Assembly: GCF_000332335.1 (NCBI RefSeq)
Contig: NZ_KB235948.1
Coordinates: 4,222,977-4,286,976, forward strand
From: Oscillatoria sp. PCC 10802
GTDB taxonomy: Bacteria; Cyanobacteriota; Cyanobacteriia; Cyanobacteriales; Oscillatoriaceae
Direction: 5' to 3'
Length of the DNA stretch: 64,000 bases
In this document: in pieces, positions 5,718-30,715 of the stretch
Position numbering within the stretch: the first letter of the stretch is position 1
Layout: every line of letters begins with the position of its first letter
Made by a program: the position numbers and the translations under genes
The notes under the pieces: model-generated
Told to the model about the DNA's origin: nothing
What the model saw: only the letters and a program-made list of their open reading frames with translations
Database searches by the model: none

Positions 5718-7583
5718 ATGAGCGGTATTGTCGGTATTCTCAACGGCGACGGCGAACCTGTTGACCGCGCCCTGTTACAGCAAATGACCGATTTAATGGC
5801 CTTTCGCGGCCCAGATGCTCTCGATATCTGGAGTGCGGGTCATGTTGGGTTCGGTCACGCCCTCTTGCGGACGACTTGGGAATCAGAAAAAGAACGGCAA
5901 CCTCACAGTTTGGATGGGGAAGTTTGGATTGCGGCTGATGTGCGCCTGGACCGGCGCGACGAGTTGATGGACCGGCTGCGTGCCGGTGGGTGCAGCCCAA
6001 TTAGCGACGCGCCCGATGCTGACCTGATACTGCACGCCTACCGTATTTGGGGAGAAGCTTGTCTGGAGCACCTGAGTGGGGATTTTGCCTTTGCTATTTG
6101 GGACAGCCGGCAGCAGCGCCTATTCTGCGCCCGCGACCAGTTTGGGGTGGTGCCATTCTACTATACAGAAATCGGGAAAAGCCTGATTTTCAGCAACACC
6201 CCCGACTGCCTGCGCCTCCACCCGCAGGTATCGGATCGCTTCAATGAGCGAGCGATTGGCGATTTCCTGCTATTTAGTATGAATATGGATGTCGCCACGA
6301 CCACCTTTGCCGATATCCAAAAGTTGCCTCCCGCCCACACCCTTATTTGGTCGGAGGGAGAGGTGCGGGTGCGGCGTTACTGGCAGTTGCCGGAAGCAGT
6401 TGAATACCTGCGTTACAAGCGCCCGGAGGAATATGTCGAGCAGTTTCGGGAATTGTTTGAAAGGGCGGTGGGCGACCGGCTGCGGACGGAGAGCGCCGGC
6501 ACCCATTTAAGCGGCGGAATGGACTCTACCAGTATCGCCGCCACGGCTTATAAATTAATGGCGGCAAGTGGTAAAATTGTGGATTTTCGGGCTTACACGA
6601 TCGTCTACAAACAGCTGATTTCCGACGAAGAAGGGGGCTACGCCACGCAGGTCGCTGAGGCTGCCGGTTTCCCAATTGAGTGCCTCGTGGCGGAAGATTA
6701 CATACAGCAGGCACCACCGGAACAGCCGGAATATATCTCTCCGGAACCCCTAATGATTCCGAACCAACTCGCTGAAACGGAAATTAATAGGCGCACCGCC
6801 GGCTGCAGTCGGGTGCTGCTCGCTGGGTTTGGGGGCGATCCGGCGTTTTACCCATCGCCGGCTTACTGGTACACTTTACTACAAACCGGCAAGTTTCAGC
6901 ATTTTATGCTAGATGCGCTGGCTTACATCCGCTGTTTTCGCCGGTTGCCGCCCTTGGGGTTGCGATCCGGAGTGCGCCGGTGGCTGAAAAGAGGGGACTT
7001 GCGGCAGCAAGAGATTGATTGTCCCGACTGGTTAAACCCAGATTTCGCAGAGCGAGTGAATTTGAAAGCGCGACTCCAAGAAATCTGGACTGCGCCACCG
7101 CAGAAAGACCGCTACGGGATGGCGGCGGCTCCCTTGTGGTGGAACATTTTTGCGTGGGCAGATCCGGGCTTCAGTGGCTTTCCTCTCAAAGTTCGTTTTC
7201 CCTTTTTCGATGTGCGTTTGGTGCTATACTTGCTGTCAGTGCCGCCGGCTCCCTGGTTTGAAAATAAATTGTTGCTGCGGGAGGCCATGAAAGGCGTGTT
7301 GCCCGATTCCGTGCGACAGCGACCCAAAACACCGCTGCGAGGTTTCGCCCATTACAACTTAATGCAGCAGCGAGGAATCCAGCCCTGGATGGTAGAATTG
7401 GCAGCAACACCGGCCCTGACCCCCTATGTCAGCAGCCAGCGCCTGTTGCAAAGACTGCAAGCCCTTGCAGAACTCACCCCTGCCAGCTACAGTCAGGCTG
7501 TCCCAGCCCTGCAACTGGCTTACTGGCTGCGCCACCAGCGTCGTCCAGAAGTCAAGACCAGACCAATTGTTTCCCTGATTTGA
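5718..7583 (+). CDS. lasso peptide isopeptide-bond-forming cyclase (C protein, asparagine synthetase B homolog) #1
   Basis: 621 aa ORF. The N-terminus is MSGIVG, with no Cys2 glutaminase nucleophile. It retains the PP-loop SGGMDST and the AsnB-like DFAFAIWD...LFCARD motif. It sits directly upstream of a precursor peptide gene. Confidence 0.8.
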   Translation: MSGIVGILNGDGEPVDRALLQQMTDLMAFRGPDALDIWSAGHVGFGHALLRTTWESEKERQPHSLDGEVWIAADVRLDRRDELMDRLRAGGCSPISDAPDADLILHAYRIWGEACLEHLSGDFAFAIWDSRQQRLFCARDQFGVVPFYYTEIGKSLIFSNTPDCLRLHPQVSDRFNERAIGDFLLFSMNMDVATTTFADIQKLPPAHTLIWSEGEVRVRRYWQLPEAVEYLRYKRPEEYVEQFRELFERAVGDRLRTESAGTHLSGGMDSTSIAATAYKLMAASGKIVDFRAYTIVYKQLISDEEGGYATQVAEAAGFPIECLVAEDYIQQAPPEQPEYISPEPLMIPNQLAETEINRRTAGCSRVLLAGFGGDPAFYPSPAYWYTLLQTGKFQHFMLDALAYIRCFRRLPPLGLRSGVRRWLKRGDLRQQEIDCPDWLNPDFAERVNLKARLQEIWTAPPQKDRYGMAAAPLWWNIFAWADPGFSGFPLKVRFPFFDVRLVLYLLSVPPAPWFENKLLLREAMKGVLPDSVRQRPKTPLRGFAHYNLMQQRGIQPWMVELAATPALTPYVSSQRLLQRLQALAELTPASYSQAVPALQLAYWLRHQRRPEVKTRPIVSLI

Positions 7584-7609
7584 AGAAATTGAAATTCAGG
7601 AGGAAAACT

Positions 7610-7774
7610 ATGTCCCAAACAACTCCCAACCAAGCAAATGCTGCGAATAAAAAGGCATACCACACCCCGCAATTGCGGAAATTTGGCAATGTTAGCGAAC
7701 TGACGTTTACTAATATCACTAATTCGTCTGGGAATCCGGATGGCGGTTCACTTCCTGCTGTGTATGCTTCGTAA
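7610..7774 (+). CDS. lasso peptide precursor (A3): MSQTTPNQANAANKKAYHTPQLRKFGNVSELTFTNITNSSGNPDGGSLPAVYAS
   Basis: ATG at 7610 sits 8 nt after AGGAGG. The ORF-track start at 7580 is an upstream in-frame Met. The leader matches the proteobacterial class II motif Y-x2-P-x-L-x3-G-x5-T-x (YHTPQLRKFGNVSELTF). The peptide ends in Ser. It lies directly after the cyclase gene. Confidence 0.7.
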   Translation: MSQTTPNQANAANKKAYHTPQLRKFGNVSELTFTNITNSSGNPDGGSLPAVYAS

Positions 7775-7851
7775 CTAAAATGAGTTGTTAGTTTCCCCTC
7801 CTATAGGGGCGCTAAAAACCAGTCCACTTTACTGAAGCGCTAGGTCGGAAA

Positions 7852-7874
7852 GAGAGGGGTGGAAATCCCCTCTC
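7852..7874 (+). other. GC-rich hairpin between precursor and kinase genes (GAGAGGGG-TGGAAAT-CCCCTCTC)
   Basis: Perfect 8 bp stem with no U-tract. A second short hairpin CCCCTCC-TAT-AGGGG lies at 7793-7808. A possible role is partial terminator/attenuator or RNA-stability element setting precursor stoichiometry. Confidence 0.35.
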
Positions 7875-7892
7875 AAATAATAGAGATTAAAA

Positions 7893-8933
7893 ATGAGTAT
7901 TTTAGAGAGAATGGGTGAGTTTTTTAGATATAGATCCTATGGCTTAACGCTACAGGCAAATCGACCTCTACCAGGGTTAATGGCTACCTCCGACCATGCG
8001 CCGGTCGATGTCTGGGTGGATTTGATGGGAGAGCGTAGTTCAAACCCCTCAGCACCCCAAGCAACTCCAAACTTTACTCCTTACCAGAATCAGGAAGAGG
8101 AGTTTGGGATGCGGGTGTGGACTGAGCAAACGGGAGACGGTCACTACATAAGGTTGTGGTTTCGCGGTCCTGTCAAGCCTTCAGGGAAAGTCGATTTCAG
8201 GCTCGATGAAGATGGGAAACGAATCTCCGTTACCTGGACTGAGATGGTGCTAGAGGATGTGATATCACTTTTGCTCGGTTCAGTTTTGGGGTGTGTATTG
8301 CGGCTGCGGGGGACAGCCTGTCTCCACGCCTGTACAGTAGCGGTCGGCGAGCGTGCTATTGCGATTTTGGGAGAGAAAGGGGCGGGTAAATCAACGACTG
8401 CTGCGGCATTAAGCCAGCGCCAAATGTCGATTTTATCCGACGACATTGCCGTTCTTAACGATAGCGGTAAGAATTTTTCAGTACAGCCTGGCTATCCGCA
8501 CCTGCGACTGTGGCCAGAGGCGATAGATGCCCTCTACGGTTCAGAAGTGGATTTGCCGCCAGTTCTAACCGGCTGGGAAAAACGCTATATTAATTTGATT
8601 GACGGTGGGGGATCGTCTGCATGGGGATTTCAAAGCGATCCCCTGCCTTTGGGGGCGATTTACGTCCTGGGAGAACGGGTGCCTTCTTTGGCAGCACCGG
8701 CGCTTGAACCCATTCCCCCGGCAACAGCTGTGATGGCGCTGATGGCGCACAGATCGGCAAGCTTTTTAACATTAGAGCGAGAGAAGCAAGCGCGGGAGTT
8801 TGCCGTCCTCAGTCGCGTTGCTGCGACAGTGCCGGTGCGAAAAGTGATTCGCCCCGATAGCTTGGATGCCTTGCCCCAACTGTGCGATGCTATTTTGGAA
8901 GATTTGGCGGGGAATAAATGCACTCTACTTTAG
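7893..8933 (+). CDS. HPr kinase/phosphorylase C-terminal-domain-like kinase (lasso peptide Ser kinase candidate) #1
   Basis: 346 aa ORF with P-loop GEKGAGKSTTAAAL followed by SDDIAVL, as in the HprK_C fold. It is paralogous to the ORFs at 14485-15588 and 27342-28424. It is co-operonic with cyclase and precursor. Confidence 0.7.
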   Translation: MSILERMGEFFRYRSYGLTLQANRPLPGLMATSDHAPVDVWVDLMGERSSNPSAPQATPNFTPYQNQEEEFGMRVWTEQTGDGHYIRLWFRGPVKPSGKVDFRLDEDGKRISVTWTEMVLEDVISLLLGSVLGCVLRLRGTACLHACTVAVGERAIAILGEKGAGKSTTAAALSQRQMSILSDDIAVLNDSGKNFSVQPGYPHLRLWPEAIDALYGSEVDLPPVLTGWEKRYINLIDGGGSSAWGFQSDPLPLGAIYVLGERVPSLAAPALEPIPPATAVMALMAHRSASFLTLEREKQAREFAVLSRVAATVPVRKVIRPDSLDALPQLCDAILEDLAGNKCTLL

Positions 8934-10018
8934 CTGAATCTGTGGATGTGCTTTTGGGGGCGGGCGCGGAAGCACCGGCACTGCAGCATTTAATTGCGCC
9001 GGCTGCCGTATTAGAATTAAAAAAATTGGCTGCTAATTTAGCTCCGATTCTGCGGGGTGGCTTTGAGTGCCGGCTGGCTGCAAATACACCCCAAGTAGAT
9101 TTGCAGCAGTGCGTTGTGCCAGACGAGAGCGAATTGACTTTGCTGCGAGAGCACATTGCTGCTGTCACCGGTGCCGGTGGGGTGTCCCCACATCCGGGGT
9201 GGTCACAGTTACAGGATTTCCTTGCTCAGTGGTGCGAGCCACTCTCCCCACTCCATAACAGCATACCAGAAATCTGGCTGGAGTTTGACATTAACAGCCC
9301 ATCTGTTATCCTGCCAGTACCGGCGATTTTCTTTGGGTTGCCCCAAGACGTATCGCCAGCGGTTGAACCCTATCCCATCGCAGCGAAAGCCCTCGATTTG
9401 CTGCTAGGTGAGTTGGGTTGGTGCGCGTGGCGAGACAATCTCTATCGCTGCTTTGCAGCTTGTCCCGATGGCGTGTTTGTCAGTCACATCGGGGTGATGT
9501 TATCGCGAAAGGCACCGGCTTTGCGAGTCAATGTCAAACGTTTGCTTCCCGACTCGCTGGTTCCCTACCTGCAACAGATTGGCTGGGAGGGGGAAACAGA
9601 CGAAGTGGGATCGCTGATGGAGCAGCTGTTGGCTTTCGCCGATCGGATAACGGTTTGTCTGGATGTGGGGGAGAGAATTTATCCCCAAATTGGGTTAGAA
9701 TGTATTTTACTGAAACAGCCCCAAAGCGAACCTCGCTGGACTGCTTTTCTAAAGTATCTGGTAGACGGAGGTTTGTGTGCGCCGGCAAAGGCAGAGGCGC
9801 TGTTAAACTGGCCAGGACAAACGAATCCCGCCGGCGCACCGGCACCTTGGCCAGGTGAGTTGATTGCGGCGTCGCTGTTGCAGCCTCCAAATTGCTTTAG
9901 CGTCTTCGAGCGCCGGTTGAGCCACATTAAAATTGTTTGGCAACCGCAACGCCGGCTAGAGGCTAAAGCCTATCTCTGGTTCCAGCACCAGTGGCTGTCT
10001 GTGGAAAGGAAAAGGTGA
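8918..10018 (+). CDS. hypothetical protein (conserved in lasso operon; function unknown)
   Basis: 366 aa ORF whose start overlaps the kinase stop, suggesting translational coupling. No motif recognised. Codon usage is consistent with its neighbours. Confidence 0.5.
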   Translation: MHSTLAESVDVLLGAGAEAPALQHLIAPAAVLELKKLAANLAPILRGGFECRLAANTPQVDLQQCVVPDESELTLLREHIAAVTGAGGVSPHPGWSQLQDFLAQWCEPLSPLHNSIPEIWLEFDINSPSVILPVPAIFFGLPQDVSPAVEPYPIAAKALDLLLGELGWCAWRDNLYRCFAACPDGVFVSHIGVMLSRKAPALRVNVKRLLPDSLVPYLQQIGWEGETDEVGSLMEQLLAFADRITVCLDVGERIYPQIGLECILLKQPQSEPRWTAFLKYLVDGGLCAPAKAEALLNWPGQTNPAGAPAPWPGELIAASLLQPPNCFSVFERRLSHIKIVWQPQRRLEAKAYLWFQHQWLSVERKR

Positions 10019-10139
10019 ATAAGCTTTTAGGCTTTTAATCTTCTTGTCTGATCAAAGGAGGCAGAGCCTCCAGAACGGCGTTCCCAGGCGGAGCCTGGGA
10101 ACGAGAAACCAAATACAAAATCCAAAATCCTTGCATCCA

Positions 10140-10886
10140 ATGACTTTTGACCTAGATAACTTTTACTCCAGCGAATCCATTTCCGAATGGAAACAGATTA
10201 TCGGCGAGGAGTTGCACTACCATTTCGGTTTCTTTCGCGGTTCTGAAGATTTGGAAGCCGGTTTGCGGCAAACGATTAGGAACTACTATCCTTACCTTCC
10301 TCCGGGTTCGCGCGTTTTAGATGTGGGCTGCGGTTGGGGAGGGCGAGCCAAGATGCTAATCGCCGAGCGCAATTGCTCTGTAGCGGGTATCGCATTCAGC
10401 AGGACACAGGTAGAATATTGCCGTAGCCAGGGATTAAATGTGTGGCAGCAAAATTTGGAACAAGATAAGTTTCAGGGCGAGTATGACCTAATTTTCCACA
10501 TAGAAATTATCTCTCATATTCGCAATAAAGCCGAACATCTGCGCCGGCTGCGTTCCTGTGCGTCTCGCTTAATCTTGTCAGAGAGTTGTGCTGCGGACAG
10601 CTATTCGGGAGAGCGAACGACCTTTGGTGGATCTATGGTTCTTTGCACAGTGTCTGAACTGGTTCGGGATGTGGAGTCAGCTGGCTGGAAAATTCAATTC
10701 ATGCAAGACCGGCGCTTTTCCTCACTGCGGACGATCTCCCTGTGGAAGCAAAACTTCGATCGCGTCTACGGCGACCGGCAGCCTCCCGGACAGCTGGGCT
10801 GTCTTCGCAGTCTTGTTGATGCCGCGCTGCAATCGCCGGTGAGGTGGTGCCAGACCTTTCCCCTAATTGATATTGTAGCAGATTGA
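10140..10886 (+). CDS. class I SAM-dependent methyltransferase
   Basis: Motif I LDVGCGWGG. Start trimmed to MTFDLDN, because the 5' extension from 10044 overlaps a dispersed repeat (GGCGTTCCCAGGCGGAGCCTGGGAACG). Confidence 0.7.
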   Translation: MTFDLDNFYSSESISEWKQIIGEELHYHFGFFRGSEDLEAGLRQTIRNYYPYLPPGSRVLDVGCGWGGRAKMLIAERNCSVAGIAFSRTQVEYCRSQGLNVWQQNLEQDKFQGEYDLIFHIEIISHIRNKAEHLRRLRSCASRLILSESCAADSYSGERTTFGGSMVLCTVSELVRDVESAGWKIQFMQDRRFSSLRTISLWKQNFDRVYGDRQPPGQLGCLRSLVDAALQSPVRWCQTFPLIDIVAD

Positions 10887-10896
10887 GGAATGAAAG

Positions 10897-12144
10897 ATGA
10901 GTGAAAAAATTCAAAACGAAACCGTGCCTTTGCCATTTAATCCGCGCTCGTCAGAGTTTCGCGCCAACCCCTATCCCACTTATCACTATCTGCGGACTCA
11001 CCACCCCATCTACTATCGGCCAGAATGGAACGATTGGGTGCTGACGCGCTACGCTGATATTGTGGAAGTTCTGCAAAATTATGGTGCCGGTCATTCAGAA
11101 CAATTACTCACTAACTTACAGACCTCGGACGCGCCAATTAATCGATTATTGGCGTCGCGGAACGAAAGTCAAAAACTGTTGAAGCTGTGGTTAGTGCTGA
11201 GAAATCCGCCTGACCATACCAGAATGCGCCAAGTGGTTCAAAACACTTTCACTTTCCAGAATATTCAAGCTCTGCGGGAGCGCTTAGAAGCCAGAGTTAA
11301 CGCTCTCATCGAGCGGGTCAAAGATAAAGGTAAGATGGAGATTGTTGACGATGTTGCTTATCCGGCATCCGTGGGAGCGATCGGTGAAATATTAGGAATC
11401 CCCCAACTAGAAGAGGATCGCCGGTTCAAGCTGTGGTCGCAAGAGCTGTCACTATTGATTGATATGGATGTGACTCCAATCAACCAGGAGCGAGGTTTGC
11501 TAGCGTTTTCTGGTCTTGTCGATTACTTCCGCAGTTTCATTGCCAAATGCCGCACCTATTGCCCCCCTCAAGATAACTTGATTGGCACGCTGATTCAAGC
11601 GCAAGCGGAGGGAAAAGTGAGCGAAGAAGAACTCATAGCAAATTGCATCCTCATGTTTTTTGCCGGACACTCCACCACTAAGCATCTGATCGGCAACAGC
11701 ATAGTGGCATTACTGCAGCATCCCGATCAGTTACGCCTGCTACAAGCAGACCCATCGCTGATTGAAATGGCCATCAATGAAGTCTTGCGCTATAACAGTT
11801 CGTTCCAAGGAGTTTCCCGCACCGCTTTACACGACATAGAACTCTCAGAGGGAGCGATTAAAAAGGGCCAAATCGTTCACTGTCTAATAGGTGCAGCAAA
11901 TCGCGATCCAGCCCAGTTCCCCGATCCCGACAAGTTTGAGATTAGACGCAACCCAAATTCATCCCTTTCTTTTGGTCACGGAATACATTTCTGCTTTGGG
12001 TTACACTTGGCAAGATTGGTGGCTAAAACAGCGGTAGGGACAGTGGTGCGCCAGTTGCCAGGGTTATCCTTAGAAACGGAATCCCTCGCATGGGAAGAAA
12101 CTTTCCTAGCACGCGGGTTGAAATCTTTGCCGGTCGTCTTTTAA
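10897..12144 (+). CDS. cytochrome P450
   Basis: 415 aa ORF with the heme-binding loop FGHGIHFCFGLHLA, the I-helix AGHSTT and an EVLR (ExxR) motif. Confidence 0.85.
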   Translation: MSEKIQNETVPLPFNPRSSEFRANPYPTYHYLRTHHPIYYRPEWNDWVLTRYADIVEVLQNYGAGHSEQLLTNLQTSDAPINRLLASRNESQKLLKLWLVLRNPPDHTRMRQVVQNTFTFQNIQALRERLEARVNALIERVKDKGKMEIVDDVAYPASVGAIGEILGIPQLEEDRRFKLWSQELSLLIDMDVTPINQERGLLAFSGLVDYFRSFIAKCRTYCPPQDNLIGTLIQAQAEGKVSEEELIANCILMFFAGHSTTKHLIGNSIVALLQHPDQLRLLQADPSLIEMAINEVLRYNSSFQGVSRTALHDIELSEGAIKKGQIVHCLIGAANRDPAQFPDPDKFEIRRNPNSSLSFGHGIHFCFGLHLARLVAKTAVGTVVRQLPGLSLETESLAWEETFLARGLKSLPVVF

Positions 12145-12152
12145 TCCCTCTC

Positions 12153-12371
12153 TCAAGAATTGTAAATCAACCAGCGCATCGCCCAGTCGTGTTTGTGCGC
12201 TGCTTGCAGTTCCTCAACCGTAAAAGTCACACCGGCTTCAGCGCCAAGTTTGACGAGAGTGTCCAAGTCCGGGCTGTTATTAAGGGCCAAAAGTTTACTT
12301 TTTAGCCCCACATCAGCCCGCACTTGCTGGATAAATTGTAAAGCGGTTTGCACAGACATCCGTTTTCTCAA
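12153..12371 (-). CDS. Nif11-domain protein (stand-alone)
   Basis: MSVQTALQFIQQVRADVGLKSKL...AGVTFTVEELQAA matches the Nif11 fold. There is no GG cleavage motif or core region. The likely start is the internal MSVQ. Confidence 0.6.
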   Translation of the reverse strand: MRKRMSVQTALQFIQQVRADVGLKSKLLALNNSPDLDTLVKLGAEAGVTFTVEELQAAHKHDWAMRWLIYNS

Positions 12372-12475
12372 GAGGGGAGATTAACTTGTATCGGGCGCTC
12401 GAACATGGCAAAGCGCTCGCACCTCTTTTATTATAATCGGCAATTAGCCCCTCTCCCCACAATAACCCCAGACAA

Positions 12476-14488
12476 TTACAAAACATCCAGCCAGATTGCC
12501 AAATCCGCCGTTTTAGCCAGCAGCTTCGACAACCGCCTTTTCCGGCTCCCTTCAGTTTGAGGGTTGAGAAACTCCTGATACTGTTTGGATAAAACTTTCC
12601 TGCTCACATAATTTCCTAAAGCAGATTCCCGATTAAACAGCAAATCTTCTAGCAATTTCGGTTCTTCTTTTTCCAGACCTTTGACAATTATCTCAGAAAA
12701 ATCAATTTTGCTCGATCGCTCCCTTACTTCCGGCGGTAATATATCGATCATAGCACAGCGCATCACTCCTCGTCCCATGCCGTTATAAAACTTCAAAGTT
12801 GCTGGGGCTGCTAAACACAACTCTATCACTCTCTTATCTAAAAACGGGTGTCGTGGTTCTATAGATAAACCGCTACATATCCCGTCTATTTCCTCCGTGG
12901 AGTTGAGAAGATTATCTGAGAGAATCCCCCGAGAATGAGCCCTGTATTCCGAAGGGACATATTCGGCAAACTGACACTCATATTCTCGCTCGATTAACTG
13001 CTGCAAATTAATCTCTTTTGCCAGAGCAGCACTCACGGCTGGATTGTACTGTTGCCAGCGAACTTTATGGGAAATAAGGCTGTGTTTCAATACCCTTAAA
13101 TTTTGCCAAAGCCCCCAGGGTCTGTGACCGACTATTTCTGCAAAAAGTTTCAAAAACTTGCTGTAATTTTCTTGGCTCACCTGATGTTTCAAATAAGGCA
13201 CAATATGCTGAAAAATTTGTGAGTTCAATTTCGTTTGTAACTCACTCTCTTTTACCTGATACACTTTCAGATACGCGACAATTACCTCTATCAAATTTTG
13301 CCAATTTTCTAGCTCAACTAACTCAGCCAAGTAATGTCGCCCGTGAGAAACAATTGTATCGCCGTCATGCCCCGTTAACATCACTCTTGCCCCTTGTTGC
13401 TGGGCTGCCTGTACTGCTGCCAATAATATCACTGGAGTCGGCATTTGCAGGGGTTGATTTATCCAAGAAATAGTGGTTTGAGCAGCGCTAATCACGTTCC
13501 TGTCGATAGGGGTGAAGCAGTGCTGAAATCCCCCTCCGGCTAATACAGCCCGCACATAAGATTTTTCATCGGTAGATTCCAGCCCGCCATCTCCATAAAT
13601 GGTGATTAAATCAGCGCCATTGCCTTGCTGCTTTAAAAAATTCCGCGCCACGCAGCTGACTGAAGAGGAATCCAACCCGCCACTCAAATTCGATGCTACG
13701 GGGTAAGCGCTTCGCAGGCGACAAACCACGGCTTGGGTGAATCGTTCTTGAAATGCCTCAATGTACTCTCTTTCGGAGTTGAGTTTTATTTTTGCGGCTT
13801 CCCCTTCTAAATCCCAATAAGGTTTTAACCGGCACCCTTGCGGGCTGACTGTCATCCAGTGTGCGGGAGGCAAGCGAAAAATATTTCGGTAAAATGTCTC
13901 AGTTTTTAACGCCGCAAATCCCGTCAGCTGACACAGGAAAACTCCCAGCTTTGCATCGTTCACTTGACGCGGCACCTCTTCTAAACTGAAAAGGGCTTTG
14001 ATTTCGGAACCAAAGGCAAAAAACTTGTCGGGCTGGCAGTAATAATAAAACGGCTTGACTCCCATCGCATCTCTGGCACAAAAAAGCTGCTGATCGTAGC
14101 GATTCCAAATGGCAAAGGCAAAGTCACCCAAGAGTTTTTCCGGACAAGACTCGCCCCATTTTTCATAAGCCGCCAGTATCAGTTCGCTATCGGTTATCGT
14201 TTCTCGCGGGTTCCCCCTCATCCCCAAGGCAGCGATTAATTCATCTCGGTTATCAATGCGAGCGTCTGCCGTCAGTACGAGATTTCCCCCTCGCTTCGCC
14301 AGCGGGAGTTTTTCGTGCAGAGATTCCGGCGTCACCCACAACATCCGGTGCCCTAAACCCACAGCGCCTTCCCTCCAGATTCCCGCTCCATCGGCACCGC
14401 GATGCGCTAAACTATCTACCATGCGGGCGAGGGTTTCTGCGCCGGCTGAGCGCTCGTCAAAAAAATAAATGCCAGTGATGCCACTCAT
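12476..14488 (-). CDS. lasso peptide cyclase (C protein, asparagine synthetase B homolog) #2
   Basis: 670 aa ORF. The N-terminus is MSGITGIYFF, with no Cys2. It has the PP-loop SGGLDSSSV and DFAFAIWNRYDQQLFCARD. The start overlaps the upstream kinase stop (ATGA). Confidence 0.8.
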   Translation of the reverse strand: MSGITGIYFFDERSAGAETLARMVDSLAHRGADGAGIWREGAVGLGHRMLWVTPESLHEKLPLAKRGGNLVLTADARIDNRDELIAALGMRGNPRETITDSELILAAYEKWGESCPEKLLGDFAFAIWNRYDQQLFCARDAMGVKPFYYYCQPDKFFAFGSEIKALFSLEEVPRQVNDAKLGVFLCQLTGFAALKTETFYRNIFRLPPAHWMTVSPQGCRLKPYWDLEGEAAKIKLNSEREYIEAFQERFTQAVVCRLRSAYPVASNLSGGLDSSSVSCVARNFLKQQGNGADLITIYGDGGLESTDEKSYVRAVLAGGGFQHCFTPIDRNVISAAQTTISWINQPLQMPTPVILLAAVQAAQQQGARVMLTGHDGDTIVSHGRHYLAELVELENWQNLIEVIVAYLKVYQVKESELQTKLNSQIFQHIVPYLKHQVSQENYSKFLKLFAEIVGHRPWGLWQNLRVLKHSLISHKVRWQQYNPAVSAALAKEINLQQLIEREYECQFAEYVPSEYRAHSRGILSDNLLNSTEEIDGICSGLSIEPRHPFLDKRVIELCLAAPATLKFYNGMGRGVMRCAMIDILPPEVRERSSKIDFSEIIVKGLEKEEPKLLEDLLFNRESALGNYVSRKVLSKQYQEFLNPQTEGSRKRRLSKLLAKTADLAIWLDVL

Positions 14489-15588
14489 ATTATGCCTTGT
14501 TCAATTGCCGCGACGAATGTGTTGAGCATTTTAAAATTTTGGGGGCGCTGCCATTTCCAGAGTTCCACGCGACTGAGCAAGTTAGCGCACTGCTGAAAAT
14601 GATGCTGAAGTGCAGCTCCTTTCAGGATAGCACTCGGACAGGGAAAAAAGCGCGTCAGCATCAAAAAAGCTTCTCTCGGCTCCATTTTGGCAATCTTTAG
14701 CTCGCTCGACAGACGCACATTATCCTCCGGGGGCGGGTTTATTGCAACCCTTTGCTGTGCCATCAAGTTTTCGGGCGAACCCGCCCCTGCGCTGACTGTC
14801 TCTAACAGGAAAATCCGATTTACAGAAAGTGGTGTCAGGGGAAAATTTTCCCGCTGTTGAATCACTTGTTTTCGCGAACCCGGAAACAGCGGCGATAAAC
14901 TGGAGGGATCGCAGCCAATGCCATCCACGGCTGATGGCCATATTTTGATTTGGGGAAATGCCGGCAAAATTACGGGTTGGGGGTGAGAGTCAAGTGAAAT
15001 GGCAACCATATCGTCGGCTAGCACCTGATGGCCTTTTTTGGCAAAAGCTGCAACAGTGGTTGATTTGCCGGCACCTGGAATCCCGACAAAGACTGTCACT
15101 TCTTCCCCGATTTTTACCGCGCTCGCATGGAGCAAAAATAAGCCTTTTTGATACAGTATTAATCCCAGTGCCTCGCTTAAAATATAGAGGTTTAACAATT
15201 GCCGGTCAACAGCTCCTTCCCCAACCGGCGCAACCGCAGTGGGATTGCTCCGGTTCGGGGCAACCACGGGGGGATTGCCCTTGCAATCTGGCTGGACAGT
15301 CAGACGGGTGCCACCTACCGCTAATATTGTAACGACTCCCGGCCATTGCAGGTAAGCTTCTTGCTTGTTGCCGCAAAATAAGGCTTCAATTCCTTGGCGT
15401 TTAATTGAGGTCGGCTCCAGTTTGGGATGTGTGATTTTGCCTTTGACAATGCAAACATCCTCCCCTTTACCTCCTGCGATGAGTTCAGGGAACTCAAGTT
15501 CGGAGGCAATATTTAAACCGTAAGCTTGATAGAACAACATCTTTGCTATGGCTAGTAAATGCCGCCCTAACATTTGTTTATAAACCAA
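14485..15588 (-). CDS. HPr kinase C-domain-like kinase #2
   Basis: 367 aa ORF with P-loop GIPGAGKSTTVAAFAK and LADDMVAI. Paralog of the ORF at 7893-8933. Confidence 0.7.
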   Translation of the reverse strand: MVYKQMLGRHLLAIAKMLFYQAYGLNIASELEFPELIAGGKGEDVCIVKGKITHPKLEPTSIKRQGIEALFCGNKQEAYLQWPGVVTILAVGGTRLTVQPDCKGNPPVVAPNRSNPTAVAPVGEGAVDRQLLNLYILSEALGLILYQKGLFLLHASAVKIGEEVTVFVGIPGAGKSTTVAAFAKKGHQVLADDMVAISLDSHPQPVILPAFPQIKIWPSAVDGIGCDPSSLSPLFPGSRKQVIQQRENFPLTPLSVNRIFLLETVSAGAGSPENLMAQQRVAINPPPEDNVRLSSELKIAKMEPREAFLMLTRFFPCPSAILKGAALQHHFQQCANLLSRVELWKWQRPQNFKMLNTFVAAIEQGII

Positions 15589-15789
15589 CTATCGTTCGCT
15601 CAAACACGCCGTTATAAATCGGATCTTTTGAACCAAGCCCCGACTGAAATTCCTCCAGCATAACATCTGGTATTTGTCAGCCGTTAACTTTAAATTAAAG
15701 GCTAGCATCTCGATTATCTGAGTAATTTTTTATTCCCTCAAACCCTATCTAGCCTTAGTTGAATTTGACAGGTGCTGCTTCGCGATTAA

Positions 15790-15942
15790 TCACGACGGCG
15801 GTGCCATATTTCCCCCCATCCCATCCGTATTGCTTCCCGATGTCGCTTGAGTGATGTTTTGGATACTTCCGTAGGGGGTTAGAGTGGGTTTTTTGTAAGG
15901 CAGTTTGCCTTGGCTGTTTGCTTTATTTCCTGCGTTCTTCAT
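15790..15942 (-). CDS. lasso peptide precursor A1: MKNAGNKANSQGKLPYKKPTLTPYGSIQNITQ|ATSGSNTDGMGGNMAPPS
   Basis: Hand-translated 50-codon ORF that is below the ORF-track size cut-off. An RBS-like AGGAGAAATTATG precedes it. The leader matches Y-x2-P-x-L-x3-G-x5-T-x exactly (YKKPTLTPYGSIQNITQ). The predicted core is A1..D8 (8-residue macrolactam ring) plus a 10 aa tail ending in Ser. Confidence 0.75.
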   Translation of the reverse strand: MKNAGNKANSQGKLPYKKPTLTPYGSIQNITQATSGSNTDGMGGNMAPPS

Positions 15943-16190
15943 AATTTCTCCTGATCCAATGATTTGTCCTTATGGCCCTTGACTTCCGGGGACGGGTTGA
16001 TTGCAACTCGGAGTTTTGCCCGCAAGGGTTCCGGCAAGCCCCGCCCCCTACAGCTTTGGGCTCTGAATGATTCTATCCTACACCTCTAGGGCGGCTTTGT
16101 CAAGGGATTTTGCCTCTTTTTTTATGTCGGATTGTTAAGATTTCAACACTTGTGGATTTTGCCCCGTTCTATCTATCGTCTAGCGGCGCT

Positions 16191-16373
16191 CTAACGCTTC
16201 ACCTCAATGGGAGAATCAAACATGGCAAAGCGCGAGCGCACATCCTGAGTGTCATTGAGCACAGTACCCTCCCACTCCACCCAAGCGTGCGCCTCAAAAT
16301 TCCCCGCCTCCCGTTTTACCCCAATCCGCAATTCGCTGTCAATTCCCTGCCGGCGCAGCACGCCCCACAGCAC
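16191..16373 (-). pseudogene. 3' fragment of the lasso B2 protease gene (duplicated remnant)
   Basis: The 60 aa encoded are ~97% identical to the C-terminal 60 aa of B2 at 16823-17311. There is no N-terminal catalytic region. It lies inside tandem-duplication unit 1. Confidence 0.7.
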
Positions 16374-16479
16374 CAGCGACTTCTTCAGGCAATTCGCCCA
16401 AGGCTGGCAATATTTCGCCGCTAACTGTACCCTGCGGCCAGGTTAAATTTGACAGGTGCTGATTCACAATTAATCACGT

Positions 16480-16623
16480 CTAAACAAGATTTCCACCCAT
16501 CCCATCCGTATTGCTTCCCGATATCCCTTGAGTGATGTTTTGGATACTTCCGTATGGGGTTAGGGTGGGTTTTTTGTAAGGCAGTTTGCCTTGGCTGTTT
16601 GCTTTAGTTTCTGCGCTCTTCAT
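16480..16623 (-). CDS. lasso peptide precursor A2: MKSAETKANSQGKLPYKKPTLTPYGSIQNITQ|GISGSNTDGMGGNLV
   Basis: Hand-translated 47-codon ORF preceded by AGGAAAAATTATG. The leader is identical to A1 from KANSQGK onward. The predicted core is G1..D8 plus a 7 aa tail ending in Val. Confidence 0.75.
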   Translation of the reverse strand: MKSAETKANSQGKLPYKKPTLTPYGSIQNITQGISGSNTDGMGGNLV

Positions 16624-16822
16624 AATTTTTCCTGCTCAAATGATTTGTCCTTATGGCCCTTGACTTCCGGGGGCGGGTTGATTGCAACTCGGAGTTTGGC
16701 CAGCTAGGGATCAGGCCAGCCCCGCCCCCTACAGCTTTGGGTTTTGAATGATTTTATCCTACACCTGTAGGGCGGCTCTGTCAAGGGATTGCGCCCCGTT
16801 CTATCTGACGCCTACCGGCGCT

Positions 16823-17311
16823 CTAACGCTTCACCTCAATGGGAGAATCAAACATGGCAAAGCGCTCGCGCACATCCTGAGTGTCATTGAGCACAGTCCC
16901 TTCCCACTCCACCCAAGCGTGCGCCTCAAAATTCCCCGCCTCCCGTTTTACCCCAATCCGCAATTCGCTGTCAATTCCCTGCCGGCGCAGCAACCCCCAC
17001 AGCACCAGCGACTTTTTCAGGCAATTCGCCCAAGGCTGGCAATATCTCGCCGCTAACTGCACCATGCGGATAGCCCTCACAATCGTGAGATTGCGCTCCT
17101 CACTTGAGAGTGGCAATTTGGCTGCCGGCAGCCACCTCGCCAAAGCAGTTTGCGTGAAACCCAGCCCCCTGAATTTTAGCGACAGTGCAACTAGGGGGAG
17201 CAACAGAAAAGCTTGCAAAAGCAGCCGGCGGGAATTTCCGTCCAGCCGGCAAAAACTGCGGGATTTACGAACCAGTAACTTCAACCAGCCCATGCGCCAA
17301 TAACTCTTCAA
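16823..17311 (-). CDS. lasso peptide leader peptidase B2 (transglutaminase-like Cys protease)
   Basis: 162 aa ORF with the Cys motif ANCLKKSLVLWGLL and His in GNFEAHAWVEW. It overlaps B1. Confidence 0.8.
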   Translation of the reverse strand: MKSYWRMGWLKLLVRKSRSFCRLDGNSRRLLLQAFLLLPLVALSLKFRGLGFTQTALARWLPAAKLPLSSEERNLTIVRAIRMVQLAARYCQPWANCLKKSLVLWGLLRRQGIDSELRIGVKREAGNFEAHAWVEWEGTVLNDTQDVRERFAMFDSPIEVKR

Positions 17312-17588
17312 TTAGATTCCCCACATCCTGCTGTAACTGTTCTGGCTCAATGTCGTACTCAGCCCCCAGCGCATCTATCGCCTTCCCGACAGACTCCCTC
17401 TCTGTCAGCGCTTGCCAGATCCGGCTGCCAACATCATCCAGGCCAAAATACTGTTCCGTCTGGAGGTTCAGCAGCACCGACTCCCCAGCCAAGTCTTGAA
17501 CCAGAACATTGGGAGCCACTGAAACTTTTTGGTTAGTTTGGAATTTCAACAAGTTTGCCCTCCTCTCAATTTGGTATAATTGTATCAC
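17265..17588 (-). CDS. lasso peptide B1 protein (PqqD-like RiPP recognition element)
   Basis: 107 aa ORF with the PqqD-family pattern VLVQDLAGESVLLNLQTEQYFGLDDVGSRIWQAL...DVGNLIEELLAHGLV. Confidence 0.8.
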   Translation of the reverse strand: MIQLYQIERRANLLKFQTNQKVSVAPNVLVQDLAGESVLLNLQTEQYFGLDDVGSRIWQALTERESVGKAIDALGAEYDIEPEQLQQDVGNLIEELLAHGLVEVTGS

Positions 17589-26716: not shown

Positions 26717-26875
26717 TGATAATGGGGTATGGGGGATGGGGTATGGGGTATGGAGCGCTGTAAAATAGTAGCGTTCCGCCCTAAAATACAGGCAGTATTT
26801 GTGCGGAGCCGGTTCCAGGCGGAACGCACCCTACTGTAAATTTAGTTGAAGGCCACAAAAAAAGGGAAAATAAGT

Positions 26876-27334
26876 ATGGCGTCAGAACGTTTCAGAATCA
26901 ATAGTCCTAAAGTTGTCCATGAAATTATTGACGGTGAAGTCGTAATTGTCCATCTGGTGAAAGGGCATTATTATAGCCTGGTCAAAACAGGGGCGGAGAT
27001 TTGGAGCGGGATTGAAAGAGGCATTTCTAGGAGCGAGCTTGTAGAAGAGATGGTGCGGCGGTACGATGGGGAGCCGGCAGATATTGAAAAGGCGGTCAAC
27101 AATATGATAGAACAGTTGCAGGAGGAGGAACTGATCGCTGTCGCACAGACAGAGGAACCGGACAGCGCGACTGTAGCCGCCGGCGCAATCGAAGCGAAGG
27201 CGAATCCAGAAAAGTTGAGCTTTGAGCCACCAAAGTTAGATAAGTACACAGATATGGAAGATTTGCTGCTGTTAGACCCCATCCATGAAGTGGATGAAAC
27301 CGGCTGGCCCAATGTCAAGCCGGCGGCTGTGTGA
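26876..27334 (+). CDS. PqqD-family protein (stand-alone RRE/peptide chaperone, HprK-kinase-associated type)
   Basis: The PqqD-like core is VHEIIDGEVVIVHLVKGHYYSLVKTGAEIWSGI...VEEMVRRYDG. Start taken at MASERF. An acidic C-terminal tail follows the core. Confidence 0.65.
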   Translation: MASERFRINSPKVVHEIIDGEVVIVHLVKGHYYSLVKTGAEIWSGIERGISRSELVEEMVRRYDGEPADIEKAVNNMIEQLQEEELIAVAQTEEPDSATVAAGAIEAKANPEKLSFEPPKLDKYTDMEDLLLLDPIHEVDETGWPNVKPAAV

Positions 27335-27341
27335 AATACCG

Positions 27342-28424
27342 ATGAGCAACAAATTATTACAGCCGGATATGGCAGCCAAAAATGCTAGAATGGAGCCACT
27401 AGAGTTTTTCGATGCGGTTTATCAAAAGTACGGACAAGCGGAAGCTGCTGGCGGGGGGTGTGTTGACCGCTATTATTGTATAGCCGGTTTTGCAGTTCGG
27501 TTGCGTTTTGCCGGAGTGGCGCTGCTACCCTATATCACACCGGCTCTAGCGCACTTGGCGATAGGACCAGTGGCGGAGCCGGCGCTGACTGTGTGTTTGT
27601 GGGACAGTGACTCTACGAATATTGTAATGCCGCCGCCGCCTTGGCAAGCGGATGATTATCGAGAGGGCGGGGAAATTCGAGGGTTTGTGGATGAGCGCAT
27701 TCATACGATTGTCCAAATAGGAGTGAACGCACTCTCGGTTTTGGACAGAGAGCGGAACTTGGGAATATACTGGGTGAAGACTGCCAAACAGATTCCTTAC
27801 TATGAAAGTGCCGCCCCTCTGCGGGCAATTTTTCACTTGTGGATGAGTCAGCGGGGAATCCAGCTGATTCATGCCGGTGCGGTGGGACTTCCCAGTGGGG
27901 GGGTGTTGCTGGTGGGAAAGGGGGGTTCGGGCAAATCGACCACAGCGCTAGCTTGTCTGAATTCCGAGCTTTGCTATGCTAGCGATGATTACTGTCTGCT
28001 GGCGCACCACCTGAAACCAACCGTTTTCAGTATTTACAGCACCGGCAAGAAAAATGGGAATGATGTGGGAAGATTGCCATTCCTGGTTTCAAAGATCCGC
28101 AATCCTGACCGGCTCGGTACAGAAAAAGCGGTTTATTTGTTGAGCGAGAGTTTTCCGGACAAACTTTTGCCAAGTTTTCCGCTCAGGGCAATTTTAATCC
28201 CGCGAATTAGTGGGGGGAGAGAGACGGCATTGAAACCGGCATCGCCGGCAGCCGGTCTGGCGGCGCTGGCTCCGAGTACAATATTTCAATTACCTGGGGA
28301 CAGGAAAAAGGGTTTTCAGACAATGGGACAACTGGTCAGGCAGGTTCCTTGCTATCAGCTGAACTTGGGCACTGATATGGGACAAATTCCTGAGGTGATT
28401 TTAGAATTATTAGCTGATAACTAA
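27342..28424 (+). CDS. HPr kinase C-domain-like kinase #3
   Basis: P-loop GKGGSGKSTTALACL and SDDYCLL. Paralog of the two kinases in the core lasso locus. Start taken at MSNKLL. Confidence 0.65.
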   Translation: MSNKLLQPDMAAKNARMEPLEFFDAVYQKYGQAEAAGGGCVDRYYCIAGFAVRLRFAGVALLPYITPALAHLAIGPVAEPALTVCLWDSDSTNIVMPPPPWQADDYREGGEIRGFVDERIHTIVQIGVNALSVLDRERNLGIYWVKTAKQIPYYESAAPLRAIFHLWMSQRGIQLIHAGAVGLPSGGVLLVGKGGSGKSTTALACLNSELCYASDDYCLLAHHLKPTVFSIYSTGKKNGNDVGRLPFLVSKIRNPDRLGTEKAVYLLSESFPDKLLPSFPLRAILIPRISGGRETALKPASPAAGLAALAPSTIFQLPGDRKKGFQTMGQLVRQVPCYQLNLGTDMGQIPEVILELLADN

Positions 28425-28427
28425 GCA

Positions 28428-29171
28428 ATGCAATCTGACCAATTTTTCGTGAGCGTTATTATACCCGTGTACAATGGAGAAGCCTTTTTGGCAGAAGCTG
28501 TTGAGAGTGTGTGGCAGCTTAATTACCATCCTCTAGAAATTATCATTGTAGACGATGGCTCGACAGATGGCACTGCTGGAATTGCCAAAAGTTTCCAGGG
28601 GGATGTCCGCTATGTGTGGCAATCTAATAGTGGGCCATCTGCTGCCCGCAACGCGGGACTGAAGATGGCGAGGGGGAACGTTATCGCTTTTTTGGATGCG
28701 GACGATTTGTGGCCAAAAAATAAATTAGAAATTCAGCTGGCGTGCTTGGCTGCAAATCCATCGGTCGAAATTGTCGGGGGGTACATACAGCATATGCGGC
28801 TATCGGACAGCGCCGCAGACACACAATTATTGGTTGAATTTGCCGAACCTATTGTTTCTTTTAACTTGGGAGGCGCGATTTTTAGGAAGTCGGTGTTTGA
28901 CAGAATAGGCTTGTTTGACGAGAAGCTGCGTTATAGTGAGGATGTTGACTGGTTTATGCGAGCTTGGGAGAAGGGGGTTTCAATGGTTGTGTTGAAGCAG
29001 GTGACGCTGTTTTATCGAAAACACCAGGACAGCATGACTTCTGGAAACAATATACACGAGAATAATTTCATTAAGGTACTCAAAAAATCTCTGGATCGCC
29101 GCCGGCAAAAAAGCAATGGTTCCGCCGCGCCTCTTCCTGGATTGTCCTATCTGGATGAAGCTAAGCTTTAG
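28428..29171 (+). CDS. family 2 glycosyltransferase (GT-A) #1
   Basis: VSVIIPVYNGE...IIIVDDGSTDGT...LDADD (DxD). Confidence 0.8.
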   Translation: MQSDQFFVSVIIPVYNGEAFLAEAVESVWQLNYHPLEIIIVDDGSTDGTAGIAKSFQGDVRYVWQSNSGPSAARNAGLKMARGNVIAFLDADDLWPKNKLEIQLACLAANPSVEIVGGYIQHMRLSDSAADTQLLVEFAEPIVSFNLGGAIFRKSVFDRIGLFDEKLRYSEDVDWFMRAWEKGVSMVVLKQVTLFYRKHQDSMTSGNNIHENNFIKVLKKSLDRRRQKSNGSAAPLPGLSYLDEAKL

Positions 29172-29282
29172 GAAAACCGCTGGGAGAAGCACTGTAACTC
29201 CTGGTCTGTTTAGAATGGCGTGTGTTAAGCTGGAAAAGCCGGCCTGCAAGCAGGGGTAAATCTATAAAGGACATATTGAAAA

Positions 29283-30682: not shown

Positions 30683-30715
30683 AAACCGGGTTTCTTAGAC
30701 GTAAAGAACCGACAA

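Follow-up and report, generated by a model that had tools for sequence, protein, structure and literature searches.

The 64,000-nucleotide (nt) stretch of Oscillatoria sp. PCC 10802 DNA analysed here, referred to below as the window, carries on its minus strand a lasso peptide gene cluster in the order B1, B2, A1, B2 remnant, A2, K and C (Table 1). The precursor genes A1 and A2 have in their neighbourhood a PqqD-type leader-binding protein (B1), a transglutaminase-like leader peptidase (B2) and an Asn synthetase-like cyclase (C), in addition to an HprK-like kinase (K). B2 is an exact match to the RefSeq entry 'lasso peptide biosynthesis B2 protein' (WP_017718232.1), and C is a full-length member of the NF033535 family, with model positions 1-667 covered. 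RefSeq gene calls exist for A1, A2 and a third precursor of the window, A3 (WP_017718221.1), but they are named only 'hypothetical protein'. The initial annotation of this DNA had proposed A1 and A2 as small minus-strand open reading frames (ORFs) arisen by a tandem duplication that also left a remnant of B2, and both ORFs are found exactly where it had placed them.

The duplication itself was confirmed by direct repeats and pairwise alignment, which revealed a single head-to-tail duplication in three collinear blocks, with an upstream unit of 628 nt (unit 1) and a downstream unit of 680 nt (unit 2). A repeat of such length is far above chance, one 23-mer of it being found three times compared to 0 expected. 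The full-length B2 gene is the source of the duplicated 3' part. Two differences account for the unequal length of the units: 49 nt that are inserted in unit 2, with a 10-nt direct repeat at the borders, and that are absent from unit 1 and from the related loci L001 and L020 described below, and 3 nt in the tail of the core. A single novel junction joins the end of the segment to its start, as in a tandem duplication. The 19 bp of microhomology claimed for this junction were reduced by a three-way comparison with both parental sequences to 5 nt at most (GGCTA), and the present junction, AAC/CTGG/CCGCAGGG, is an exact fit to neither parent.

The piece of B2 present in each unit was also larger than the last ~190 bp initially proposed, as it spans 247 nt (81 codons plus the stop). 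In the copy located between the precursors (B2 remnant 1) the frame is open, yet an ATG, a ribosome-binding site and the N-terminal half are all missing, a TAA is located directly upstream and the A1 frame does not enter it. Translation of B2 remnant 1 was consequently rejected, and it is therefore treated as a pseudogene.

Both A1 and A2 have AGGAG/AGGAA 5 nt ahead of the ATG and an identical leader, YxxPxLxxxGxxxxxTx (...LPYKKPTLTPYGSIQNITQ), so that the Shine-Dalgarno-like sequences and the canonical class II leader described in the initial annotation were borne out. The predicted cores, which follow the leader end ...YKKPTLTPYGSIQNITQ common to both, are GISGSNTDGMGGNLV for A1 and ATSGSNTDGMGGNMAPPS for A2, ending in Val and Ser, respectively, as originally noted. 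Thr at position -2, Gly1 or Ala1, Asp8 and no Cys are found in both, as in class II precursors of split-B systems, and these residues would allow the ring between residue 1 and Asp8 that had been predicted. When the 64 kb were searched in six frames with the expression Y..P.L...G.{4,6}T., three matches were obtained, corresponding to A1, A2 and A3. The computed masses of the dehydrated cores are 1359.609 for A1 ([M+H]+ 1360.616) and 1632.651 for A2 ([M+H]+ 1633.658).

Core residues 4-13 (GSNTDGMGGN) are common to A1 and A2, whereas residues 1-2 and the tail (LV vs. MAPPS) differ. Divergence had been assigned to the first ring residue and the tail, and this is correct as far as it goes, but core residue 2 and three residues of the leader N-terminus have changed as well. 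Across the leader motif (19 codons) and core residues 4-13 (10 codons), A1 and A2 show 3 synonymous and 0 nonsynonymous differences, whereas the leader N-terminus and core residues 1-3 show 0 synonymous and 5 nonsynonymous ones, and the same partition is seen in all six pairs of A1, A2 and the precursors of L001 and L020. Conservation of the small ORFs in related strains, a check that had been proposed for them, is thus observed, all changes in the leader motif and in core residues 4-13 being synonymous; both genes therefore seem to be under selection, and the split between the two classes of sites fits diversification under selection. A bulky residue occupies core position 14 in each of the four copies (L, M, M, F), as would be expected of a plug residue.

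Upstream of each precursor there is a promoter-like site; that of A1 has its second copy in unit 2 and is also retained in L001 and L020. Each 5' untranslated region (5'UTR) contains in addition a G+C-rich hairpin element of ~62 nt (GGGG(G)CGGG...CCCGCCCCC), whose 9-bp outer helix is kept in five sequences and whose inner stem differs between the units on both helix strands (TTGCC/GGCAA vs. TGGCC/GGCCA). The maintenance of promoter-like site, ribosome-binding site and hairpin in both units favours the presence of two working genes. A third copy of the hairpin element lies in frame inside K, where it supplies ~25 extra residues that are absent from K', the kinase of the second module described below, and from other homologues, although L001 has the same insertion; no further copies were found in the 64 kb. 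A riboswitch or small RNA reading of the 5'UTR hairpin was considered and is not claimed, because an Rfam scan of 12-18 kb returned no family for it, folding energies of the whole UTR were no better than those of shuffled sequences (z -0.3 to -1.2) and covariation was minimal.

A second, different lasso module that appears to share B1 and B2 is located next door and had been missed by the initial annotation. This module (5718-12144, plus strand), hereafter the resident module, faces the operon formed by A1, A2, K and C and consists of a P450, a methyltransferase (MT), an unknown gene (X), the kinase K', the precursor A3 and the cyclase C'. The two cyclases are only 34% identical and the two kinases 25%. 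A tblastn search of the 64-kb window revealed no second B2 and, apart from B1, only one PqqD-like gene, which is part of an unrelated locus at 26.8 kb. It appears that one B1/B2 pair serves two sets of cyclase, kinase and precursors. The arrangement B1-B2-Nif11 facing P450-MT-X-K'-A3-C' is also found in the related locus L012, in Nodularia sphaerocarpa (L018) and in the complete genome L017, and the adjacency of B2 and the Nif11-like gene also in a Xenococcaceae genome (L014).

Some features of this resident module deserve separate mention. The A3 family, represented in the window, L012 (13915-14079), L018 (16039-16209) and L015 (12498-12683), has the leader ...YHTPQLRKFGNVSELT and cores in which a DGGS motif is common to all members and the last three residues are always (Y/H)(A/T)S. 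The spacing between the leader Thr and the Asp ranges from 9 to 12 residues, so that the cleavage site and ring size would depart from the simple Thr(-2) rule. In several cyanobacterial genera, the resident-type clusters have the conserved Nif11-domain gene (65-72 amino acids) immediately downstream of B2, and it contains no obvious core peptide. The ORF at 8918-10018 is conserved at the same position in L012 and L018 (422-441 amino acids), and the window copy is perhaps 5'-shortened, as its BLAST match to L012 is split into three pieces.

The comparison with relatives revealed three states of the locus among close relatives: the resident module only, both modules, or only the set of precursor, kinase and cyclase (A-K-C), which is called the cassette below. 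The B2 proteins closest to that of the window (92% protein identity) are those of L012, a 97.7-kb contig from Ga0436594, and L013. Both loci are syntenic with the window on both flanks, one flank being formed by DUF697 genes and the opposite one by P450-MT-X-K'-A3-C', and both lack window positions 12385-16848, B2 being followed there by the Nif11-like gene. Among 5.8 billion proteins, only three close relatives of cyclase C were found, with identities of 93% (L020), 89% (L001) and 74% (L021), the next match after L021 reaching 56% at most. L020 is a single contig of 5135 nt with the order B1-B2-A-K-C, 93-94% nucleotide identity to the window and one precursor, in which ...ITQ is followed by AVAGSNTDGMGGNMAPPA, thus providing the single-copy state that was to be looked for in relatives. 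L020 has lost the resident module, from Nif11 to A3 and including most of C', but B1 and B2 of the resident type are retained beside A-K-C, which argues that they serve the cassette. A 62-codon 5' stub of C' is located directly downstream of cyclase C in L020, in reverse orientation (4804-4998, minus strand).

L001 contains A-K-C with the core GGGGSNTDGMGGNFDPP and a remnant of the B2 tail after C at the same junction. At least two adjacent precursors precede K-C-ABC in L021 and three are present in the cluster of Nostoc UHCC 0702; thus, multiple precursors are usual in the cassette family, and the pattern xxxGSxxD is found at core positions 1-8 in 8/8 of its precursors. Other searches were less productive. 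A scan of genome contigs with cyclase C yielded only matches from Bacillota, Saprospiraceae and archaea (28-36%), with no cyanobacterial locus among them, and was uninformative. Metagenome contigs scanned with a degenerate PTLTPYGSI pattern gave 31 matches, all of them due to chance and inside unrelated proteins. An exact look-up of the contigs encoding the 162-amino acid B2 ORF and A2 gave no match.

Further evidence on the origin of the cassette comes from the region between C and the Nif11-like gene. Directly after the stop of C there is another fragment of B2 (B2 remnant 2), and the ATG of the Nif11-like gene lies 8 nt past it. This fragment can be aligned base by base to the 3' end of B2 and the Nif11 start in L014, as part of a 213-nt BLAST match (E 3e-50). 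The terminus '...PIEVNLPS' is the commonest one of cyanobacterial B2 proteins, whereas functional B2 and B2 remnant 1 of the window both end in FDSPIEVKR. The displaced canonical B2 C-terminus between C and Nif11, as in L014, suggests that the A-K-C module sits within the 3' end of the resident B2, whose original last ~50 nt would have been displaced. Both the apparent cassette insertion and B2 remnant 2 had escaped the initial annotation. B1 and B2 are themselves of the resident type, with 65-77% identity to those of L014-L018 and only 33-37% (33% for B2) to those of the Nostoc sp. UHCC 0702 cluster (L023), which has a C-type cyclase (55-56% identical to C). B1 is 92-96% identical to the B1 of L012 and L020 and 67-73% identical to those of L015, L017 and L018.

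Two other observations concern the 3' end of B2 in the related loci. Both ends of the k-mer-assembled contig of L001 (1-20 and 3696-3736) fall in the B2-tail repeat, 31 nt apart in B2 coordinates, which suggests that A-K-C is flanked there by direct repeats of at least ~70 nt of the B2 3' end, as integration or excision by recombination would leave. In L012, a repeat-rich insertion of ~330 nt (about 8470-8810), with palindromic ends as in miniature inverted-repeat transposable elements, separates the coding end of B2 from the conserved TCAATCTCCCC...Nif11 and alters the B2 C-terminus to ...PIEASAKGKGEA.

Taken together, we propose that the locus is a composite lasso cluster in which an A-K-C cassette lies inside the resident B2 and was itself subjected to an internal tandem duplication that gave rise to A1 and A2, a scheme to which we assign a probability of about 0.7. 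The resident cluster of Kamptonema formosum/Oscillatoria sp. PCC 10802 would have been B1-B2-Nif11 facing P450-MT-X-K'-A3-C', with an ATP-binding cassette (ABC) exporter. Within the last ~50 nt of B2 there would be an accessory cassette that comprises a spacer with a promoter of its own, a precursor, the HprK-like kinase K and the cyclase C. A segment that starts in the middle of B2 and extends 38 nt beyond the stop of the precursor would then have been duplicated head to tail, producing B2-A1-[B2 remnant]-A2-K-C, with the promoter-like site, 5'UTR hairpin, ribosome-binding site and full leader in each copy and the B2 remnant as a putative non-coding by-product. Both precursors would be expressed and processed by the single B1/B2 pair: B1 would bind the common YxxPxL leader, B2 would cleave after ...ITQ, and C would close a predicted 8-residue ring between Asp8 and residue 1, which is Gly in A1 and Ala in A2.

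Table 1. Coordinates of the features of the two lasso modules and of the repeats in the window, with the basis of each assignment; the last four rows refer to other loci.
Feature	Position	Strand	Basis or details
B1 (PqqD-type ribosomally made, post-translationally modified peptide (RiPP) recognition element, leader-binding protein)	17265-17588	-	Pfam PqqD 6e-19; NCBIfam lasso_PqqD_Bac 5.6e-18, below cutoff
B2 (lasso leader peptidase, 156 amino acids from ATG at 17293; WP_017718232.1)	16823-17293	-	NF033537 lasso_biosyn_B2 102.7 bits, cutoff 33; Transglut_core3 1e-23
A1 (lasso precursor 1, 47 amino acids; WP_017718231.1)	16480-16623	-	MKSAETKANSQGKLPYKKPTLTPYGSIQNITQGISGSNTDGMGGNLV
A2 (lasso precursor 2, 50 amino acids; WP_155968042.1)	15790-15942	-	MKNAGNKANSQGKLPYKKPTLTPYGSIQNITQATSGSNTDGMGGNMAPPS
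K (HprK-like kinase of cassette, start codon uncertain)	14485-15588	-	Hpr_kinase_C 3.7e-4, below gathering score; HprK_rel_A 1.2e-8
C (lasso cyclase of cassette)	12476-14488	-	NF033535 lass_lactam_cya 663.6 bits, cutoff 525
Repeat unit 1 (628 nt, upstream copy), made of the final 247 nt of B2, a spacer containing promoter-like site and hairpin, A1 and 38 nt past its stop	16442-17069	-	Direct-repeat families and pairwise alignment
Repeat unit 2 (680 nt, downstream copy), made of the B2 remnant, a spacer containing the 49-nt insertion, promoter-like site, hairpin and A2	15758-16437	-	Direct repeats and pairwise alignment
Direct-repeat block	15808-16107 (unit 2) vs. 16489-16788 (unit 1)		92% identity, offset 681
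Direct-repeat block	16154-16437 (unit 2) vs. 16786-17069 (unit 1)		94% identity, offset 632
Direct-repeat block	15758-15794 (unit 2) vs. 16442-16478 (unit 1)		89% identity, offset 684
49-nt insertion, unit 2 only, bounded by 10-nt direct repeat GGCAAAATCC	about 16105-16163	-	Repeat finder and alignment
Duplication junction (precursor downstream flank joined to B2 interior)	16437-16442	-	Three-way comparison with both parental sequences
B2 remnant 1 (81 codons plus stop, 247 nt; B2 residues 82-162)	16191-16437	-	tblastn, 95% amino acid identity over 81 amino acids
B2 remnant 2 (displaced original 3' end of resident B2; GAGCGCTTTGCCATGTTCGAGCGCCCGATACAAGTTAATCTCCCCTCTTGA, encoding ERFAMFERPIQVNLPS and stop)	12368-12422	-	Read from sequence, directly after C stop
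Promoter-like site upstream of A1 (TTGACA, 17 nt, TAGGAT)	16756-16784	-	Consensus scan, 10/12 matches
Promoter-like site upstream of A2 (TTGACA, 17 nt, TAGGAT)	16075-16103	-	Consensus scan
G+C-rich hairpin element, 5'UTR of A1 (GGGGGCGGGG...CCCGCCCCC)	16666-16727	-	Repeat family
G+C-rich hairpin element, 5'UTR of A2	15985-16046	-	Repeat family
Third hairpin-element copy, in frame inside K	14726-14787	-	Repeat family
Nif11-like gene (68 amino acids), conserved downstream neighbour of B2 in resident-type clusters	12153-12359	-	Translation; Pfam Nif11 on orthologues in L012, L014, L017 and L018
P450	10897-12144	+	Profile searches
Methyltransferase (MT)	10044-10886	+	Profile searches
Unknown gene between K' and MT, 366 amino acids	8918-10018	+	No Pfam or NCBIfam match
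K' (kinase of resident module)	7893-8933	+	Profile searches
A3 (third precursor; WP_017718221.1)	7610-7774	+	Six-frame leader expression
C' (cyclase of resident module)	5718-7583	+	NF033535 379 bits, below cutoff 525
ABC exporter beside resident module	3464-5293	-	Profile searches
Nif11-like orthologue, L012	8837-9055
Nif11-like orthologue, L014	2259-2456
Nif11-like orthologue, L017	10486-10704
Nif11-like orthologue, L018	10486-10701

Several observations weigh against this scheme. When compared with curated models of lasso precursors, as had been suggested, A1 and A2 gave significant matches (E 3e-6 to 1e-5, with NF033528 positions 4-27 aligned) but remained below the cutoffs, with 27.0 bits for A2 and 24.9 bits for A1 in NF033528 lasso_cyano (cutoff 33), and 15.9 and 18.1 bits, respectively, in NF033521 lasso_leader_L3 (cutoff 19). 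The loci L001, L020 and L021 are short contigs, from SRR27480576, SRR15359038 and ERR14790946, respectively. A direct repeat of 20-25 nt (GAGCGCTTTGCCATGTT[T/C]GA) flanks the cassette and is compatible both with its gain in the window lineage and with its loss from the L012 lineage. The remaining objections concern the relationship between the two units and the state of A1, and bear on the alternatives considered below.

Regarding the age of the duplication, divergence between the units amounts to 4% in the B2 part and 11% in the spacer and precursor, as much as separates the window from other strains, so the duplication is not recent, contrary to what had been claimed. In the spacer and precursor, unit 1 is 88.6% identical to unit 2, below its identity to L001 (91.7%). 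Site patterns in this region for the four sequences (unit 1, unit 2, L001 and L020) do not group the units as sisters, although the counts are very small: 4 sites pair unit 1 with L001 and unit 2 with L020, 3 sites pair the two units, and 1 site pairs unit 1 with L020 and unit 2 with L001, with 16 singletons in unit 2, 10 in L001, 8 in unit 1 and 3 in L020. B2 remnant 1 differs from functional B2 at 8/193 positions, at 7/8 of which functional B2 has the L012 state, and it shares with L020 B2 six nucleotide states where the window B2 is as in L012. A simple, clean event in situ is thus probably not the whole history, which would include recombination among strains or a duplication that predates their split, old age, recombination or both being compatible with the data. 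Of the in situ segmental duplication initially proposed, the head-to-tail repeat with the B2 3' part, the promoter region and the precursor stands, whereas the copies are not shown to be each other's closest relatives.

These data bear directly on the best surviving alternative, which we nevertheless consider doubtful, that A1 and A2 are two alleles, one with Gly1 and a short tail as in L001 and the other with Ala1 and ...NMAPP as in L020, joined by recombination with foreign DNA, or else the survivors of an old duplication followed by losses. Besides the 4 vs. 3 sites mentioned above, Gly1 and a tail 3 nt shorter are common to A1 and L001, as Ala1 and NMAPP are to A2 and L020; B2 remnant 1 has the Val, Gly and Arg-Ser-Arg states of L020 B2 whereas the window B2 has those of L012; and identity along B1-B2 alternates between L012-like and L020-like, indicating a mosaic. 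On the other hand, the junction between the precursor downstream flank and the B2 interior is the exact product expected of a tandem duplication, functional B2 and B2 remnant 1 share three derived positions compared to L012 and outgroups, the Ser3 codon is common to both units, and under either history what is seen now is one segment repeated in tandem.

A second alternative accepts the duplication as real but takes A1 for a dying gene, in which a nonsense mutation truncated the core so that no product is made and the repeat is neutral debris. The stop of A1 is an in-frame TAG two codons ahead of the TGA common to the other copies, its tail has diverged at about half or more of the bases compared to every other copy, and the C-terminal Ser of A2 is missing, so that a truncated, decaying copy is conceivable; moreover, no other contig with the A1-remnant-A2 arrangement was found in contig and sequence look-ups. 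However, no nonsynonymous change is seen in the 29 codons that make up the leader motif and core residues 4-13, against three synonymous ones, although the spacer around them is ~9% different, and the promoter-like site, ribosome-binding site and hairpin are all retained. The core of A1 would also still have 15 residues, an 8-residue ring and a bulky position 14 (L, vs. M or F in relatives), and, as known from 15-residue lasso peptides, a 15-residue core with an 8-residue ring is a workable size. We therefore regard the loss of A1 function as unlikely. An artefact of assembly is very unlikely because the copies are 4-11% diverged and differ by indels of 49 and 3 nt, which assemblers do not invent, and both ORFs are annotated on a 6.93-Mb RefSeq contig.

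The role of the kinase is less evident. His154, Lys175, Asp192 and Asp193 of K are invariant in an alignment with five homologues, corresponding to the His-Lys-Asp-Asp motif reported for lasso kinases (PMC9266682). A C-terminal Ser is described as extremely conserved in kinase-bearing clusters, PadeK-type kinases being specific for it (PMC9266682), and the A3 family, in which 4/4 full-length precursors end in Ser, seems to fit this specificity. In the cassette family, only A2 ends in Ser, as the last residue is V in A1, A in L020, P in L001, F and P in L021, and D, D and L in Nostoc UHCC 0702; the terminal Ser codon of A2 is one base away from the Ala codon of L020. A +80 Da form of one of the products, as suggested initially, is possible, but would depend on this non-conserved residue of A2.

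A more speculative extension of the proposed scheme, improbable when its parts are taken jointly, is that A-K-C is a portable cassette that recombines into resident B1/B2 loci at the B2 3' end and whose kinase acts elsewhere than on a C-terminal Ser. Such a cassette would have no leader-binding protein or protease of its own, and strains would differ by the module placed on a common recognition machinery, with the resident module only in L012, both in the window and the cassette only in L020. As the C-terminal Ser is not conserved in the cassette family, K may target another site, for instance the invariant Ser5 of the ring, and the newly acquired terminal Ser of A2 might expose it to the neighbouring K'.

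Among known systems, the paeninodin-type clusters of Bacillota (PadeK, ThcoK) are alike in their split B1/B2, Asn synthetase-like cyclase and HprK-like kinase beside the precursor, as well as in the kinase His-Lys-Asp-Asp residues, conserved in K; Paenibacillus and Bacillus cyclases are also the nearest to C in a collection of genome species (28-36%). In contrast, the leaders of A1 and A2 have YxxP where paeninodin-like precursors typically have WxxP (PMC13381572), the genes are ordered B1-B2-A-(A)-K-C instead of A-K-C-B1-B2-D, the host is a cyanobacterium, and the C-terminal Ser conserved in those clusters is found in the cassette family only in A2. Regarding the cyanobacterial families of NCBIfam, curated models for lasso cyclases and precursors already exist (NF033535, NF033528); C falls within NF033535, whereas C' is below its cutoff and the precursors are below that of NF033528.

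Multi-precursor lasso clusters are exemplified by the caulosegnins and xanthomonins. Clusters with several precursors sharing one leader motif and one machinery, with divergent cores, are already known (PMC13381572), as are kinase-bearing ones (PMC9266682). The window differs in that its duplication left a datable scar, a 247-nt B2 pseudogene plus a duplicated promoter, and with a single-copy relative available, the mechanism can be read directly from the sequence. Prochlorosins and cyanobactins likewise combine a conserved leader with a hypervariable core and repeated precursor genes, although they belong to other RiPP classes, and the window has only two copies, with part of a neighbouring enzyme gene co-duplicated. 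Precursor multiplication in other cyanobacterial RiPPs has been described (Li et al., 2010, as cited in PMC13381572). A search of the available literature retrieved no lasso peptide described from this organism, no characterised cyanobacterial lasso peptide, and nothing specific on two lasso cyclases or a tandem duplication in such a cluster; therefore, the predicted products of A1 and A2 would be new compounds.

The duplication is a clear but fairly ordinary case of RiPP cluster diversification, and the nested cassette and the B1/B2 pair apparently common to two distant modules are its less ordinary aspects. It provides a worked example of how RiPP clusters gain products, in which one event of unequal recombination would have copied promoter and precursor together, after which the leader and the ring-forming residues remained fixed while changes arose in residues 1-3 and in the tail. 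Of more use than the duplication itself is its context, since related strains carry one module, the other or both, and the apparently shared B1/B2 would constitute a natural test bed for leader recognition across modules, which has been studied experimentally for Bacillota (PMC13381572), and suggests a way to engineer modular lasso pathways.

Finally, a separate locus of the window (26846-32385, plus strand) encodes a PqqD-like recognition element (26846-27334), an HprK-like kinase (27285-28424), three glycosyltransferases (28428-30682) and an MsbA-like ABC exporter (30517-32385), a gene set similar to that of the 'linear polyphosphorylated peptide' clusters that were recently reported from Bacillota (PMC13381572).

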